The translations under genes and the position numbers were made by a program. From positions 112,034,001-112,098,000 of the forward strand of contig OX597814.1 of the NCBI GenBank assembly GCA_951406725.2: a stretch of DNA of 64,000 nucleotides, given 5' to 3'. The stretch's first letter is position 1, and every line of letters begins with the position of its first letter. The DNA comes from Octopus vulgaris. Its lineage: Eukaryota. This document shows positions 3,298-48,252 of this stretch, piece after piece. Below the pieces are notes generated by a model, which was given only the letters and a program-made list of their open reading frames with translations, made no database searches and was not told where the DNA came from.

Positions 3298-4021
3298 GGC
3301 GCAGGAATGGCTGTGTGGTAGGAACCGTGCTTCCCAACCACATGCTTCCGGGTTCAGTCCCATTGCGTGGCACCCTGGGCAAGTGTCTTCTACTATAGCC
3401 TCGGGCCGATCAAAGCCTTGAATGGATTTGGTAAACCGAAACTGAAAGAAGCCCGTCGTATATATATATATATATATATATATTTAGTGTAGGAAGAAAT
3501 GGAGCTGAACGAAGATTTAACAAAATTCCTTTTTATTATTTTCTACATATGTTTCAAAGGCTGCAAAGTCCCTAATTCGGATTGAATAAGGAGTCCATTT
3601 TGCAGCCTTCTCTTCAGGAAAATCCAGGAACTTAATTCTCCAACAAAATGCACAGCAAGCTTTTCGACAAACGCTCACGAGGAGCCCATGGGATAAATGG
3701 CACAAAACTGTCTATCAATATGCGTTGACACCAGGCTGGGTGAAAGCCGACGAAAAAGTCCGTTGAGATAATTCAAGGTCAAAATCCGGTTATATATATA
3801 TATATATATTTGTGTGTGTCGGTGTTTTCCCCACTCATCACTTGACAATCGATGTTGGTATGTTTGCGTCCCCGAAACTTAGCGGTTCGGCAAAAGAGAC
3901 CGATAGAATAAGTACTAGGCTTACAAAGAATAAGTCCTGGGGTCGACTTGTTCGACTAAAGGCAGTGCTCCAGCATGGTCGCAGTCTAATGAATGAAACT
4001 AGTGAAAGAATAAAAGAATAA
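3298..4021 (+). mobile_element. SINE family C copy split by a 307-bp insert (3484-3790) in its internal (TA)n
   Basis: 5' half ends GAAGCCCGTCG(TA)n; 3' half resumes after a second (TA)n at 3791. Confidence 0.85.
3538..3623 (-). ncRNA. type I hammerhead ribozyme motif, canonical core
   Basis: AUUUUC-CUGAAGA-GAAGGCUGCAAA...UUUGCAGCCUUU-GAA-ACAUAUGU-A-GAAAAU: 6-bp helix I, 12-bp helix II, palindromic helix III, GUA site. Confidence 0.9.
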
Positions 4022-4054
4022 CAGAATATTTCTTCACGAAAAGTATCATAACTT

Positions 4055-4718
4055 TTATCGCTTAGTCTTTCCAGTTATTAGACTGCGCCCATGCCGGAGC
4101 ACCGCTTTGAAAAAGTTTTAGTCAAATGAATCGAGCCCAGTACCCTTTTTTTTCTTTTTTCCTTTTCAAAAGCTTGTTACTTATTCTATCGGTCACTTTT
4201 GCCAAACTGCTAAGTTACGGGGACGTAAACACACAAACACCAGTTTTCAACAGGTGTGTATGCGGGGGGGGGGCACAAACACTGACAAAAGGATGCACAC
4301 ACACACACGCACAGAGACACACACACACACAGGCACACGCAGACAGGCTTCTTTCAGTTTCCTTATTTCTTTACTGCCAACAAGGGCCTATATATAGAGT
4401 GGACAAACAAGGACAGACAAACAGATTAAATCGATTATATCGACCCCAGTGCGTAACTGGTACTTATTTAATCGACCCCGAAAGGATGAAAGGCAAAGTC
4501 GACCTCGGCGGAATTTGAACTCAGAACGTAGCGGCAGACGAAATACCGCTAAGCGTTTCGCGTGGCGTGCTAACGTTTCTGCCAGCTCGGTGCCGTCAAC
4601 CAAATCATTTCACAAGGCTTTGGTCAGTCCGAAGATATAGTAAAAGACATTTGCTCAAAGTGCCATGGTGCCATAAGGATGGGTCAGAACTACGAGGTTG
4701 GGAAGCCAGTTTCTTGCC
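4055..4718 (-). mobile_element. SINE family C copy with nested SINE family B (4363-4590)
   Basis: Family C sequence ...CTTTCAGTTTCC stops at ~4362 and resumes CCGTCAACCAAATC at ~4593 around a full family B copy. Confidence 0.8.
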
Positions 4719-5149
4719 ATCCCTGCGCCTAAATGTTAATTCTATTTAATTCTAATAACATTGATTTTCATTTAACATTTAAAAATATTAAAGAGCAGCA
4801 GAAGGGTATTGGTTTAGCAAAATGGGTCGGGATTGTTAAGGGCTGGACACTGCTGGCTTAGCGCAAATCCTTGAGCAACTCATGTACCAGGAGTTAAACC
4901 TCAATAATTGTGTTTGCAAATCAAATGTAATTTGTATGTGGGTCAAACATCTGCACCACCTCCGCTCCCGATCTTCCTCTTTCTCCTCCTCTCTCACTCC
5001 CCCTCTCTCTCTCACTCTCTCTCTCTCTCTCTCTCTCTCTCACTCTCTCTCTTTCTCTCTTTCTCTCAACCGAAGAAGGAAACATCAGTGACTGTTGCAC
5101 TAAAACTCCAGTCGATTACAATACCAGACTTATATCAGATTTAGCTTCG

Positions 5150-5980
5150 CATATGTGTGTATGTATGTAGCTTAGTTATATATAAATATATATGTGTGTG
5201 TGTGTGTGTGTATGTGTGTGTGTATTTGAGTAGTAATATATGCGGGAACACGCATAACTTCACACACACATATATGTATGTATATATTTATACATATATG
5301 TATGTATAAATATATATGTATATATATATATATATATATATATATATATATATATATATATATATATATATTTATATACATGCATATACGCTTATATACA
5401 TATGTATATATACACATACACATACATATATATATATGTACAGTTGTACAGATGGGTGTATACATACTCTAATACGTATGAACATATATGTATATATACA
5501 TACATACATACACATACATAGAAAACACACACGCATACATGCATACAAACATATATATATATATATATATATATATATATATATATATATATATATATAT
5601 ATATATATATATATATATATATATATATATATATATATACATATATATATTATATAGATATAGATATAGATATATATACGCACGCACACATACATACGTA
5701 CGTACATACATACATACATACATACATACGTACATAGATGTATGTATCTACGTATGTATGTATGTTTGTATGTATGTATATACATGCCGAAGGGAGCAAA
5801 ATGGCATGTTTACGTATAAATCCTCACACACACACACACACTAACATACATATATACACATATATACATACATACACCCCCAACACGTTCCATATATATA
5901 CACATATGTATTATACACACACGTACTCATATACATACGTACGTACGTCCTTCTACACACACACATACATACACCCACAG
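5150..5980. repeat. compound (TA)n/(TACA)n/(CA)n microsatellite field (representative; similar fields at 6430-7245, 12110-13380, 16570-17450, 19030-20330, 26910-27430, 31560-32640, 41100-42460, 60130-62610)
   Basis: Directly visible; source of the YI/HT/CV/MYVC ORFs. Confidence 0.97.
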
Positions 5981-45180: not shown

Positions 45181-45945
45181 TTTCAGCACGGATACTGTCT
45201 TATATCCGTTACTTTTAACAGGTTTCAGGCATTATTCTTTGCTGTTGCCTGATCGCTGTCATTTAACCTTCAGCGTTAGCATAACTGCAACTATTTAGAT
45301 TTCGATTTAGTATAACTGTTATAATTTAGTCTTCGACTATTGCTCATTTACTATTATTTAGCCTTCGACCTCAGCACGCTTTCAGTCTAAAGTCCTGACT
45401 TTAGCTAGATTACTGCTTAACCGATTTTTTTCTCTTCTCAGGATAGATAATAATCGTTATAATTTCGAGTTCGATTTTCGTGTGATTACTGCAATTCAAG
45501 TTTCAGTCTTAGCCCGATTGTTGTCATTGACCTTCGACTATATGCAGGATTTCTGCTATTAGGCCTGGACTTTTACAACAACCCACAGTATTAACGATTA
45601 ATGTCCTGACCAGGGACCAACTCACCGTTTTTCTAAGAGGAATGGCATATATTTGATATATATGATGATGATGGTAACAATGTTGGTGGTGACGATGATG
45701 ATGATCACGAAGATGATGATGATGACGATGACAATGCGATTGACGATGATGATGATGATCATGATGATGGTAAAGATCATTTCTTTTTCCAAAATACAAT
45801 GAGGTTGATTCTAAAGATTTGTGTTTAAAGGACAAACGTAGTGACTTTTTCAACGAATTCTTTTCGTAAAAAACGATCGATTTATTTAAAATATTAAGTA
45901 AACTTAGGATTTAACTCAGCGCCGAGTACAATATCTTTAACACAT

Positions 45946-47096
45946 TGTGTTGGGTGAAAAGTTTTGCAATATTTTGGTAATTCATTTGCTTTATTAGTCA
46001 AATTGCAACAAAAGCAGCCAAGCTTCGAAATAGAAGCCATCGTGTTGCGCTGTCAGGAGCCATCTTTTTTTGCCAGTTCTTTGATTCCATGCTGATACCG
46101 GTTCTTGTCCTTCAAGGCGAAGAATTCCTTCACTGAAGCTTCCATTTCCTTTTGGTTGATGAAGCGTCGCGAGCGCAGGAAGTGAGTCATGGATCGGAAC
46201 TAGTAATAATCCGAGGGAGATATTTTTCCGCAATCGTTATTTCCTTATTGCCCACAAGGGGCTAAACATAGAGAGGACAATAAAGGACAGACAAGGAGAT
46301 TAAGTCGATAACAACGACCCCAGTGTGTAACTGATACTTTATTTATTGACACCGAAAGGATGAAAGGCAAAGTCGACCTCGGCGGAATTTGAACTCAGAA
46401 CGTAACGGCAGACGAAATACCGCTGAGCATTTCGCCTGGCGTGCTAACGTTTCTACCAGCTCGCCGCCTTCCGCAATCCTAACGTGCCTAAGCAATGGTT
46501 AAGCAACGGCCGGCTTCTGGAACCTGTGGCCAAACATGGGTGTTTTGAACACAAGGTGATGCTCTGCGTCTGATAGAATTAAGTGGGGATAATTCACTAA
46601 CAGTTCGTTCCTGACGGTCGAGCCATCAATGCTAACCTGTACTCCGAACAGCTGGAGCAGATGTATGCCATTGTGCGGTGGAAATATCCGCCATTGGCTA
46701 ACAGAAAGCGAGTACTTCAGCAGCAAGACAACGCAAGAACTCATACTGCTCAAAAGACCAGGATTAAACTCCAGGAACTTGAGGGGATCGCACTGATCAC
46801 TCCCAGCATATAATTCGGACCTAGACAAGTAATAGTTCGGACTTAGCCGCCTCGGACTATTACTTGTTTCGATCCATGGCTTACTTCCTGCGCTCACAAC
46901 GCTTTATCAGCCATGTTGTGTTGGAAGCTTCAGCGAAGGAATTCTTCGCTGCGATAGACAAGAACTAGTATCAGCATGAGATCAAAGAACTGACAGAAAG
47001 ACAGCTTCAGACGGTGCAACACAATGGTCGCTACTTTGAATGCTAGGATGTTTTTGTTGTAATTTGACGAATAATGCAAATAAATTACCAAAATAT
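45946..47096 (+). mobile_element. rearranged mariner (DD34D-like) relic with ~250-bp inverted arms
   Basis: 46545-47042 translates KVMLCV..., LYSEQLE, QQDNARTHTA, LAASDYYLFRSM, HNGRYFE; 45969-46216 is the reverse complement of 46850-47096. Confidence 0.88.
46236..46468 (-). mobile_element. SINE family B monomer nested in the mariner relic
   Basis: 10-bp TSD TTCCGCAATC at 46226-46235 and 46469-46478. Confidence 0.9.
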
Positions 47097-48214
47097 AATA
47101 TTAATATATACGTTGTAAATATGGAGGAAGCCTCTTTCGGTCATTAATGACCATGGGATTGCACCTAGAAAGTTACCTTCCGAGGCACAAGTCCGGACAA
47201 GATTGTTTGTGGAAAGCCAGCAGTCGCCCATGCATACCAGCCTCCCTTCTCCACGCCACCAGTGTTATCCAAGGGAAAGGCAAATGCGGATACACCTTGA
47301 CACCTGTGACGTCGCAACTCATTTCTACAGCTGAGTGAACTGGGTCAACATGAAATAAAGTGTCTTGCTCAAGAACACAACACATTAACATTGAAATGTT
47401 AATAAGAATTATCTCCCTACAAAGTAGCTCTCAATGTTGGATTATACAATTGATGGTAGCCATGTTTAATTCATGGAGAGAAAATTACCAAACAGATAAG
47501 TGAACATTTCTTTTTATTAAGATTTCTTTTTCCAACTTTTATTCCACATTTCTGTTCATTATTTACTAAAGTAAATTTAGTTTATCATGTCTTAATATAC
47601 TATGGGAATAGCAAAATAAGTTCATATAAGATAGACATGAAGATTGGCAACATAATCGTTTTAATATGGTGTTGTATAGAGACATTCTATTTCAGCAATA
47701 TTGAGGAATACATTGTCATGAAACGTGCGTAGTCATGATAATGTAAAGTATGATTTGTAATAAGACTTGAAGGCATTAATTTTGATAATTTGGAATAAGA
47801 ATTGTAGTTATCAATTTTAATAATTTGAATATTTAGTCCTATATGTACATATTGTGGATAATGTCATTCAATGATGATTGAGTTGCTTCAAGGTGATTCT
47901 GTCTCTTAAACCTATCTATCTATCTATCTATCTATCTATCTATCTATCTATCTATCTATCTATCTATCTATCTATACATACATATCTATTCATACATGCA
48001 TACATACATACATACATACATACATACATACATACACACACACACACACACACACACACACACACACACACACACACACACAATATATATATATATATAT
48101 ATATATATATATATATATATATATGTATAAGGGTGAAAAGGAACACACGAGTTGATATATATGAAAAAACAAGTCAAAATAGAAAATGCTAAAATAATTT
48201 TATAAAGAATATTT

Positions 48215-48252
48215 CAGTACCGGTTTCGGTCATTTTGAGACCTTTTCAACTG
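48215..48252 (-). ncRNA. minimal hammerhead motif, U3:A8 core variant
   Basis: CAG-UUGAAAA-GGUC-UCAAAAU-GACC-GAA-ACCGGU-A-CUG; flanks homologous to 38710-38890. Confidence 0.8.

Follow-up and report, generated by a model that had tools for sequence, protein, structure and literature searches.

Why does a single stretch of octopus DNA (the window, 64,000 nucleotides of Octopus vulgaris contig OX597814.1) hold so many hammerhead ribozyme (HHR) folds, and what kind of element left them there? An earlier note on this DNA named ten hammerhead sites, and inspection of the window found the motifs as described at all ten. Our answer is that the folds are likely 3' ends that Penelope-like elements (PLEs) of several families left in simple repeats, and that two more decayed sites are predicted to form a rewired, pseudoknotted hammerhead which, by eye, also fits published Naiad elements.

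The window was searched with descriptors and compared to 60+60 dinucleotide shuffles. A strict descriptor (YUGANGA core and three helices) gave 4 matches compared to 0.02-0.03 per shuffle, and a relaxed one (YUGWNRA core) gave 8 compared to 0.17-0.23. One of these eight, 250+, was discarded because it lacks a palindromic helix III and lies inside a common repeat. In a scored scan, where sites are numbered by the position of C3/U3, 22463+, 3617-, 36022+, 48249-, 38808+, 7923+ and 21552+ outranked all of 12 shuffles; the numbers expected by chance were 0.08 for 24575- and 0.67 for 18102+. The site at 15343- has the core and helix II, lacks helix I and was missed by every descriptor. Another candidate, 25058+, was rejected: it sits in a terminal-inverted-repeat element that has a second copy at 55013-55301. 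The tally is seven strong, one borderline and two weak sites in eight families. The three below the strong seven are the A6U pair and 15343. CUGANGA and GAAA cores, an NUH site and helices I-III in type I order were present at seven sites, the deviants being the two A6U sites and 15343. The seven type I folds are real, and site-specific cleavage by them is predicted.

Six of the strong folds lie in the following elements. On the minus strand, the element at 3484..3790 was found by the descriptors, the scored scan and SINE flank matches; its HHR (3538-3623) has the core CUGAAGA at 3617, a 12-bp helix II, the helix III ACAUAUGU and a predicted cut after 3544. The remaining strong elements are on the plus strand unless noted. 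That at 7914..8222 begins with a type I HHR whose core lies at 7923, whose core halves are 94 nt apart and whose helix III is ACAAUUGU; it is predicted to cut after 8035, and a 3' tail ending at (AC)n follows. At 21549..21650 a type I HHR with a U3-A8 core at 21552, helix III ACAUGU and a predicted cut after 21591 also precedes a 3' tail; the segment 21311-21379 was considered as a 5' inversion of this element and rejected, as it consists of two 3' ends facing each other. The element at 35637..36141 (core 36022, helix III ACAGCUGU, predicted cut after 36061) has its 3' end at (AC)n, and its 5' side is taken up by a 79% inverted repeat at 35637-35866. A second U3-A8 type I HHR is carried at 38685..38890 (core 38808, helix III ACCGGU, predicted cut after 38837), and its relative at 48125..48645 on the minus strand (core 48249, predicted cut after 48218) lies between (TA)n runs, with its 5' end formed by an inverted duplication (96%) that covers 48398-48645. 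The weaker sites comprise the A6U family, with one copy at 18041..18228 (+, core 18102, helix I weak) between (TA)n and (CA)n and a second at 24446..24744 (-), which ends on the 3' side at (TA)41 and whose core CUGUUGA at 24575 has a helix I of 5 bp and a helix II of 4 bp, and a decayed minimal HHR at 15310..15345 (-, core CUGAUGA at 15343, ACGU) with no microsatellite close by. The palindromic helix III attributed to these folds was borne out, with the provision that 22463 is palindromic only if two G-U pairs are counted.

The sites had been sorted into about seven families that do not align outside the core. We count eight, and two pairs, the only ones, do align: 18102/24575 (77%) and 38808/48249 (76%). 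In one family pair the HHR is conserved at 33/34 positions and the rest of the element at 84/125 (p 1e-4); in the other the values are 39/41 and 126/164 (p 0.004). The 38808/48249 pair also shows a compensatory change from A-U to G-C at the base of helix II, the one such pair. Unconstrained folding of short segments clearly recovered the hammerhead only for 22463, and z-scores were mostly weak.

The seventh strong fold lies at 22029..22685 (+), between (GA)n and (AT)20, where a non-coding unit of 484 bp is repeated in a partial tandem 1.36 units long. The tandem has a 174-bp direct repeat of 99.4% identity. Its one complete HHR (22457-22559) has the core at 22463 and a predicted cut after 22553, and the truncated upstream copy retains a cleavage strand with a predicted cut after 22070. 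The unit has no Pfam match. It was matched in 4 organisms, with 14,380 contigs in run X1, and the head-to-tail joint was found in 12, 7, 2 and 0 contigs of X1, X3, X7 and X19, respectively, none of which spans the whole unit. As a circular monomer it folds with a z of -5.1 relative to 60 shuffles. In the tandem, a cross-copy active fold is at most 0.5 kcal from the minimum free energy, compared to 10.9 kcal above it for the monomer fold; on this prediction it is the upstream site, at 22070, that would be cut by the intact core of the downstream copy. Among 40 variant rows listed for this family only N7 lies in the core, where the expected number is small. A dip in depth near 22553 in X7 was not used because the same dip occurs in the DNA run X3.

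All of the elements were examined for the marks of PLEs. Among the ten there are one partial tandem, equivalent to a pseudo-LTR, and two 5' inversions, both published hallmarks of PLEs. The folds are located 50-200 nt upstream of a microsatellite, a 3' polarity close to the 85-92 nt measured between the HHR cut and the start of reverse transcription in the anole Poseidon element. With the likeness to Hydra-clade elements described below, these features uphold the proposed link to PLEs. On the other side, the HHR in anole depended on protein, and insertion could do without it. The search for linked RT or GIY-YIG reading frames came back empty, with 0 Pfam matches to either among 235 frames of the window (223 of 271 low-repeat frames and 12 added) and only Tc1/mariner pieces. 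An absence of ORFs is expected of 5'-truncated stubs, and so these frames place the elements in no particular one of the Hydra, Neptune and Poseidon clades. The frame that precedes 15343, used as a query against proteins, returned no match, and the ESM Atlas gave only hypothetical matches, all below 0.9. No match to the window elements was found among the few motifs and supplement parts of published consensus sequences that were compared, and of 116 loci on viral contigs considered as a source of a PLE ORF, 2 passed the helix filter, neither of them PLE-like. A regular expression for the PLE C-terminal motif, with patterns drawn partly from sequences already viewed, gave 10 matches; two coincide with inversion breakpoints in HHR elements, which we regard as anecdotal.

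Published PLE work suggests how such remnants might arise. A PLE GIY-YIG endonuclease would nick AT-rich or microsatellite DNA, reverse transcription would begin shortly 3' of the ribozyme and mostly stop early, and short non-coding stubs would remain. The palindromic helix III is predicted to pair between two copies, giving a double hammerhead. A point against such predictions is that 8 of 9 predicted Xenopus retrozyme dimers failed to cleave in vitro. The 484-bp unit may be a non-autonomous passenger of this machinery. Several non-autonomous families had been proposed, and the proposal stands for this one unit; the other elements are more simply read as 5'-truncated 3' ends of ordinary PLEs.

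Three other accounts of the type I elements bear on this conclusion. That the folds are random matches in AT-rich DNA is scarcely credible. When one core mismatch is allowed the shuffles average 4.3 matches compared to 8 observed, and Rfam, the suggested check with hammerhead models, gave 0 matches in the window at gathering score and only microsatellite-like miRNA models among the matches listed (150 of 602) in an E-value run. Yet the strict and scored scans find 4-8 sites compared to 0.02-0.3 in shuffles, and the family pairs show the contrast in conservation and the compensation described above. Chance is already refuted for the seven strong sites; 15343, 18102 taken alone and 47637 fall outside that refutation. 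A different question is whether the elements generate microsatellites or bring them along rather than insert into them. A microsatellite lies within 200 nt on the 3' side at 9 of 10 sites (null 28%, p 9e-5) and on the 5' side at only 3 of 10 (null 24%), so that the inserts described as bounded by microsatellites are so bounded on one side. A repeat on the 3' side is what a templated tail would leave, and its type varies (TA, CA, CATA). Against this, the 3484-3790 insert interrupts a (TA)n internal to a SINE: its flanks are the two halves of other copies of that SINE, which also have the (TA)n. The A6U relatives, moreover, terminate in unlike repeats, (CA)12 and (TA)41, and Hydra and Naiad PLEs are listed as preferring (TA)n for insertion. 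Creation or carriage of the repeats is thus very unlikely, and the preference for microsatellites is upheld. The suggestion that the elements may help to propagate them gained no support; the SINE insert sits in a (TA)n that was there before it.

It is also unlikely, if a little less so, that all of the elements are independent non-LTR retrozymes, short and non-autonomous and copied through self-cleaved circular RNAs. Such an origin suits the 484-bp unit, which is non-coding, abundant and joined head to tail and forms a strongly self-paired circle, at a length slightly over the published 150-450 bp range. It does not suit the other elements, which are single stubs with variable 5' ends and inversions; of seven that were folded, six show no advantage over shuffles (z 1.2 to -1.0) and one has z -2.1. 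Even the 484-bp locus has one complete HHR rather than two, and retrozymes have themselves been proposed as PLE derivatives. We retain the PLE reading for the type I elements.

The two additional sites are at 21132..21205 (+; decayed core CUGGUGA at 21199, predicted cut after 21156) and 49869..49939 (+; intact core CUGAUGA at 49933, predicted cut after 49890), in elements of about 21003-21330 and 49625-50046. The latter falls just beyond the range covered by the earlier note. Both can be fitted to a hammerhead that is pseudoknotted and has its backbone open at the step from A9 to G10.1; we came across no earlier description of this form. The strand order is IIa, [IIIb-UH-Ib], IIb-GAAA-IIIa, Ia-CUGAUGA, and thus the core has no join to helix II. 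Blocks G and S are present at both sites with all three helices pairing: II 5 bp, III 6 bp and I 7/8 bp at 21132; II 6 bp, III 4 bp together with a distal helix of 9-10 bp, and I 5 bp at 49869. A fourth helix may tie the ends of helices I and II, and, more speculatively, the fold could form within one molecule or as a domain-swapped dimer. The form was recognised by hand inspection, and with a descriptor written after the sites had been seen, 49869 with the strict core was reached by 0 of 200 shuffles and 21132, with one core deviation allowed, had 0.035 expected. The same descriptor also finds a higher-scoring AT-rich site, 61777- (0.005 expected), which we think is a chance match. Between the copies 7 paired positions vary without loss of pairing. 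On the other side, blastn does not align the two, and their cut sites lie 246 and 533 nt from a perfect dinucleotide run. A short insert at 22725..22853 (+), between (AT)20 and (TA)10, has GAAA (22732) before CUGAUGA (22760) and is a possible 5'-truncated remnant of the same form.

Alternatively, the two sites may be of type SGC, which is published and validated and has its helix II strand after CUGAUGA, or may be a non-catalytic fold, rather than a new form; this is possible but doubtful. Both copies could pair helix II with a downstream strand instead (-5.6 and -2.2 kcal), a six-permutation scan places 21199 as SGC above 40 of 40 shuffles, and both sites also score as GCS (0.05 and 0.07 expected). 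The upstream helix II, however, is the stronger in both (-8.0 and -5.4 kcal), and its first pair is the canonical G10.1-C11.1. Visual comparison finds this helix retained in 10 of 10 Naiad consensus examples, of which one has a downstream partner, out of register. Type GCS, our first reading, was dropped because it fitted less well than the upstream helix II, and less well with the Naiad examples.

The split-core reading would bear on Naiad PLEs, reported to lack canonical HHRs and to carry only 'HHR_core' and 'HHR_half_core' flags (Craig et al. 2021, PMC8557442). By eye, the split wiring fits 10 published Naiad consensus sequences from 7 lineages, and type-CSG wiring fits 6 others; about 9 Naiad UTR core matches could not be fitted, and in some Naiads the helices look, by estimate, so uneven in length that a single molecule could not form all of them. 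We consider it somewhat more probable than not, on these models, that Naiad 3' ends carry pseudoknotted hammerheads, CSG in nematodes and, in ctenophore, coral, arthropod and octopus, a seventh wiring opened at A9/G10.1 in which CUGAUGA would dock without a covalent link to helix II, and that 21132 and 49869 are decayed genomic copies of the latter. Neither element has a remnant of a GIY-YIG/RT ORF, so that the link to Naiads is one of shared fold only. Only two metagenomic sequences were known for CSG, and no named genome had supplied one (PMC10085705); if the reading is true, this rare type gains a natural home in named animal genomes, and the claim that one large clade of PLEs moves with no hammerhead is reversed.

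The type I part is known in kind and, as an example of how PLE tails can litter a microsatellite-rich genome, is of modest interest. The literature already has Hydra-clade PLEs that target (TA)n and bear similar hammerheads, among them Hydra-1_Obim of Octopus bimaculoides (PMC8557442). They share with the window elements a type I HHR near the 3' end, a helix III of AC..GU followed by H and a (TA)n preference, and one family has a 5'-truncated inverted copy. The likeness is one of fold and context rather than sequence match: the window has no ORF, its helix III palindromes are even, of 4-12 nt rather than 9-10 nt, its core halves are 56-94 nt apart at three sites, and repeats besides (TA)n are used. 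The minimal HHRs of metazoan PLE pseudo-LTRs (PMC4209133) likewise have a short helix I, a palindromic helix III, an additional base following A9, flanks that are U-rich 5' and AU-rich 3', and U3-A8 and U3-G8 cores, and occur as many families per genome, mainly in single copies. Diversity within one genome, put forward as a standout, is thus already published, as are most of the core variants, U3-A8 among them. The A6U core, kept in two 77%-identical copies, differs in being absent from the part of the published alignment compared; we found no precedent, although Lunse et al. 2017 may already cover A6U and high counts, and a metagenome scan for the motif gave one fish-like contig in single copy, which is no proof. 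The density, about 110 per Mb in this one selected window, is high: axolotl has 126,247 motifs in 28.2 Gb, or about 4.5 per Mb. If the window is typical, the density is perhaps 20 times published ribozyme values. Like the 484-bp unit, non-LTR retrozymes (PMC7229834; Li et al. 2026 preprint) are non-coding, abundant, self-paired and arranged head to tail, and carry a type I HHR. The unit differs in being slightly longer than most, in having a PLE-type rather than canonical HHR and in forming a partial tandem.

Naiad PLEs share with the window a (TA)n preference in cephalopods and, in the 3' ends of Naiad_Obim and Naiad_Ovul, a fit to the split fold, while the split copies of the window belong to other families and have no ORF. 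The non-circularly permuted hammerheads of types SGC, CSG and GCS resemble the split form in their three mutually crossing helices, the same core and a further helix that connects helix I to helix II at their ends (PMC10085705). The six-block permutations of Eckert et al. 2023 (PMC10085705) assume that helix I-CUGANGA-helix II is uninterruptible. In the window copies, as regards block C, the stronger helix II uses the upstream strand and a weaker one on the downstream strand is also present in both. The split form breaks that block between A9 and G10.1 and, if true, breaks with it the assumption under the six-permutation scheme.

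All ten hammerhead (HHR) sites named in the earlier note were located in the window, and its observation is confirmed. A strict type I descriptor found 4 folds compared to 0.02-0.03 in shuffles of the window, and a relaxed descriptor found 8 compared to 0.17-0.23; the relaxed match at 250+ was discarded as non-palindromic. In a scored scan the sites at 22463+, 3617-, 36022+, 48249-, 38808+, 7923+ and 21552+ (position of C3/U3 of the core, with strand) exceeded all 12 shuffles. Chance expectation was 0.08 for 24575- and 0.67 for 18102+, and helix I was absent at 15343-. Tolerating one core mismatch gave 8 matches versus 4.3 in shuffles, so HHR candidates described as decayed call for caution. 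An Rfam search of the window recognised none of the type I sites at gathering score. The ribozyme was kept at 33/34 positions in the pair 18102/24575 versus 84/125 for the remaining element, with N7 the sole difference; in the pair 38808/48249 the values were 39/41 versus 126/164, and the two differences form one compensatory pair. Another type I candidate, 47637-47740 (+), has position 3 occupied by A and an extended helix II; chance alone would yield 0.17 such matches, and (CTAT)n follows ~180 nt later. A 39-bp tandem repeat (15495-15627) precedes the minus-strand hammerhead at 15343, and no protein relatives were found for this repeat. Antisense to the same site, an open frame at 14565-14766 (+; ~65 codons from ATG) has protein-like composition and no Pfam match.

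The elements had been described as bounded by microsatellites. With a perfect dinucleotide run of ≥12 bp lying ≤200 nt from the cleavage site as the criterion, this held on the 3' side (9/10 sites; null 28%, p 9e-5) but not on the 5' side (3/10; null 24%). A 3' microsatellite within 200 nt was present at 7/7 strong sites, and at 8/10 sites under two stricter definitions. Because two pairs are related, the ten sites amount to 8 independent families. The insert 3484-3790 splits a SINE, and further copies of this SINE carry (TA)n at that point; the repeat therefore predates the insert. Inverted duplications at 48398-48645 and 35637-35866 lie on the 5' side of two elements. Between (CA)48 and the latter inverted repeat, the minus strand of 35355-35640 carries GAAA, then CUGAAGA with a hairpin (35518-35470), motifs that no hammerhead permutation fits.

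Published work describes this kind of element. The pseudo-LTRs (partial tandem ends) of Penelope-like elements (PLEs) contain minimal type I HHRs whose helix III is palindromic, mostly single and truncated and with many families per genome; a variant with U3-A8 is also described, as is dimer activity of a weak kind (Cervera and de la Pena 2014, PMC4209133). Hydra-clade PLEs, among them Hydra-1_Obim from Octopus, prefer (TA)n and have an AC..GU helix III (Craig et al. 2021, PMC8557442). Nicking is AT-rich, and in the anole Poseidon element reverse transcription starts 85-92 nt 3' of the HHR cut and the ribozyme is helped by protein and dispensable (Frangieh et al. 2024, PMC11167929). Retrozymes (PMC7229834) are proposed to derive from PLE ends in a preprint in which 1/9 constructs cleaved (10.64898/2026.07.22.740005). 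In O. vulgaris, 31 PLE families were recently active (PMC13282606). For further literature see PMC6765202, PMC3088659, PMC12602865 and PMC13725137. The type I sites are therefore a dense example of a kind already known, and with good confidence we read them as 3' ends of PLEs together with one family that resembles retrozymes. The earlier interpretation is supported in part, PLE-type HHRs with 3' microsatellites being what stands. Pfam frames and protein and ESM Atlas searches revealed no remnant of RT or GIY-YIG in the window.

The non-coding 484-bp unit carrying core 22463 forms a partial tandem at 22029-22685, with a 174-bp repeat at 99.4%. Sequence-archive contigs contained the unit in 20 runs from 10 studies and 4 organisms; 14,380 contigs matched in run X1, which may come from the source organism, and 4,504 in X3, a depth that is not a copy number. 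Its head-to-tail joint was found in runs X1, X3 and X7 and was absent from X19 contigs. As a circle, the 483-nt cut-to-cut monomer had a folding z of -5.1. When the partial tandem is folded in silico, the 12-nt strands of helix III are predicted to pair between copies (probability >0.9), and the fold positioned to cut 22070 lies 0.5 kcal above the MFE, with a helix I probability of only ~0.14.

Both 24575- and 18102+ have a CUGUNGA core (U for A at position 6, A6U) and a 4-bp helix II, a pattern with 2 occurrences in the window versus 0 in 100 shuffles. No published A6U core was found in a literature search covering part of the hammerhead literature. On a fish-like metagenome contig (L001, 2466-2494, minus strand) the A6U core recurs in a minimal type I hammerhead, present as a single copy, whose helix II is likewise GAGC.

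GC content of the window is 37%, tandem repeats make up ~21% of it, and it contains SINE-like and Tc1/mariner pieces. Decayed Tc1/mariner-type transposase pieces lie at 34487-34828, 37400-38420, 45990-47050 and 56330-57280; Pfam HTH and Transposase_1 matched at 34487-34828 and 46601-46810, and 37400-38420 and 56330-57280 were judged by eye. A small MITE-like element is present in two copies (25003-25240, 55013-55301); it has inverted repeats at its termini and CGCGATA repeats inside. Palindromic inserts at 48735-49018 (81% self-complementary) and 58651-58925 (76%), each flanked by (TA)n runs and containing no recognisable hammerhead, may be MITE-like or PLE 5' inversions lacking their tail.

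Two short elements have GAAA ~25 nt ahead of CUG(A)UGA, and one strand order fits both: IIa, [IIIb-UH-Ib], IIb-GAAA-IIIa, Ia-core. The predicted product is a pseudoknotted hammerhead whose backbone opens between A9 and G10.1. At 49869-49939 (+) helices II, I and III have 6, 5 and 4 bp and a distal helix 9-10 bp; at 21132-21205 (+) helix II has 5 bp, III 6 bp and I 7/8 bp, and A6 has decayed to G. The sites differ at 7 pairs with pairing kept (3 in II, 3 in III, 1 in I). Since blastn gave no alignment between them, their likeness is one of common structure and does not establish descent. At 21311-21379 a short CA/TA repeat separates two 3' ends of the 21003-21330 family in facing orientation, and element 49625-50046 terminates in a motif similar to that family's end. 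A descriptor composed after both sites were noticed matched only 49869 with a strict core (shuffle mean 0.075; 0/200 reached its score); one core deviation gave 5 matches versus 1.5 in shuffles. Among these 5, an AT-rich match at 61777-61883 (-), whose helix II closes with U-G, scores above both sites and is probably due to chance. Both sites can also be drawn as the plain published type SGC, forming helix II with sequence after the core; such pairing is possible in each copy (-5.6 and -2.2 kcal) but weaker than the upstream helix II (-8.0 and -5.4 kcal, respectively).

The split order was compared by eye, around core motifs, with the available part of the published consensus file for Naiad PLEs (54 families; PMC8557442 supplement). 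With helices I, II and III and a fourth helix, it fits 10 Naiads (Naiad_Bfor, Amil, Aacu, Anas, Obim, Ovul and four others) from 7 lineages with unrelated helix sequences. A G-C pair closes helix II before GAAA in each, and helix I of Naiad_Bfor is just 2-3 bp. Six further Naiads (Naiad-2_Nbra, Naiad-3_Nbra, Naiad_Hcon and three others) are of type CSG, in which the blocks match and the core remains attached to helix II. As line breaks conceal matches and CUGAAGA cores are partly covered, 16/54 is a lower bound; ~9 other UTR core matches gave no fit by eye, itself an incomplete tally of misses. In several arthropod Naiads, unfitted by eye, CUGACGA follows a C run and lies 40-55 nt after GAAA; these may be extended forms of the split order. 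A geometric estimate suggests that helix III of some Naiads is too long for one molecule to accommodate a fourth helix across both II and III, and such cases would need fraying or a domain-swapped dimer. The by-eye fits lend the split order independent support. The window copies are tied to Naiads by fold only. Judged from sequence, we lean towards the split-core hammerhead being a real ribozyme wiring.

Our literature search, with subscription journals and preprint supplements outside its coverage, found no description of the split form. Craig et al. 2021 (PMC8557442) report Naiads without canonical HHRs, flagging only cores and half-cores, and type CSG is represented by two sequences of metagenomic origin in Eckert et al. 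2023 (PMC10085705). The predicted wiring would be new as a permutation of a known fold: unlike the permutations of Eckert et al., it separates the core from helix II, within the helix I-core-helix II block that they assumed to be uninterruptible.
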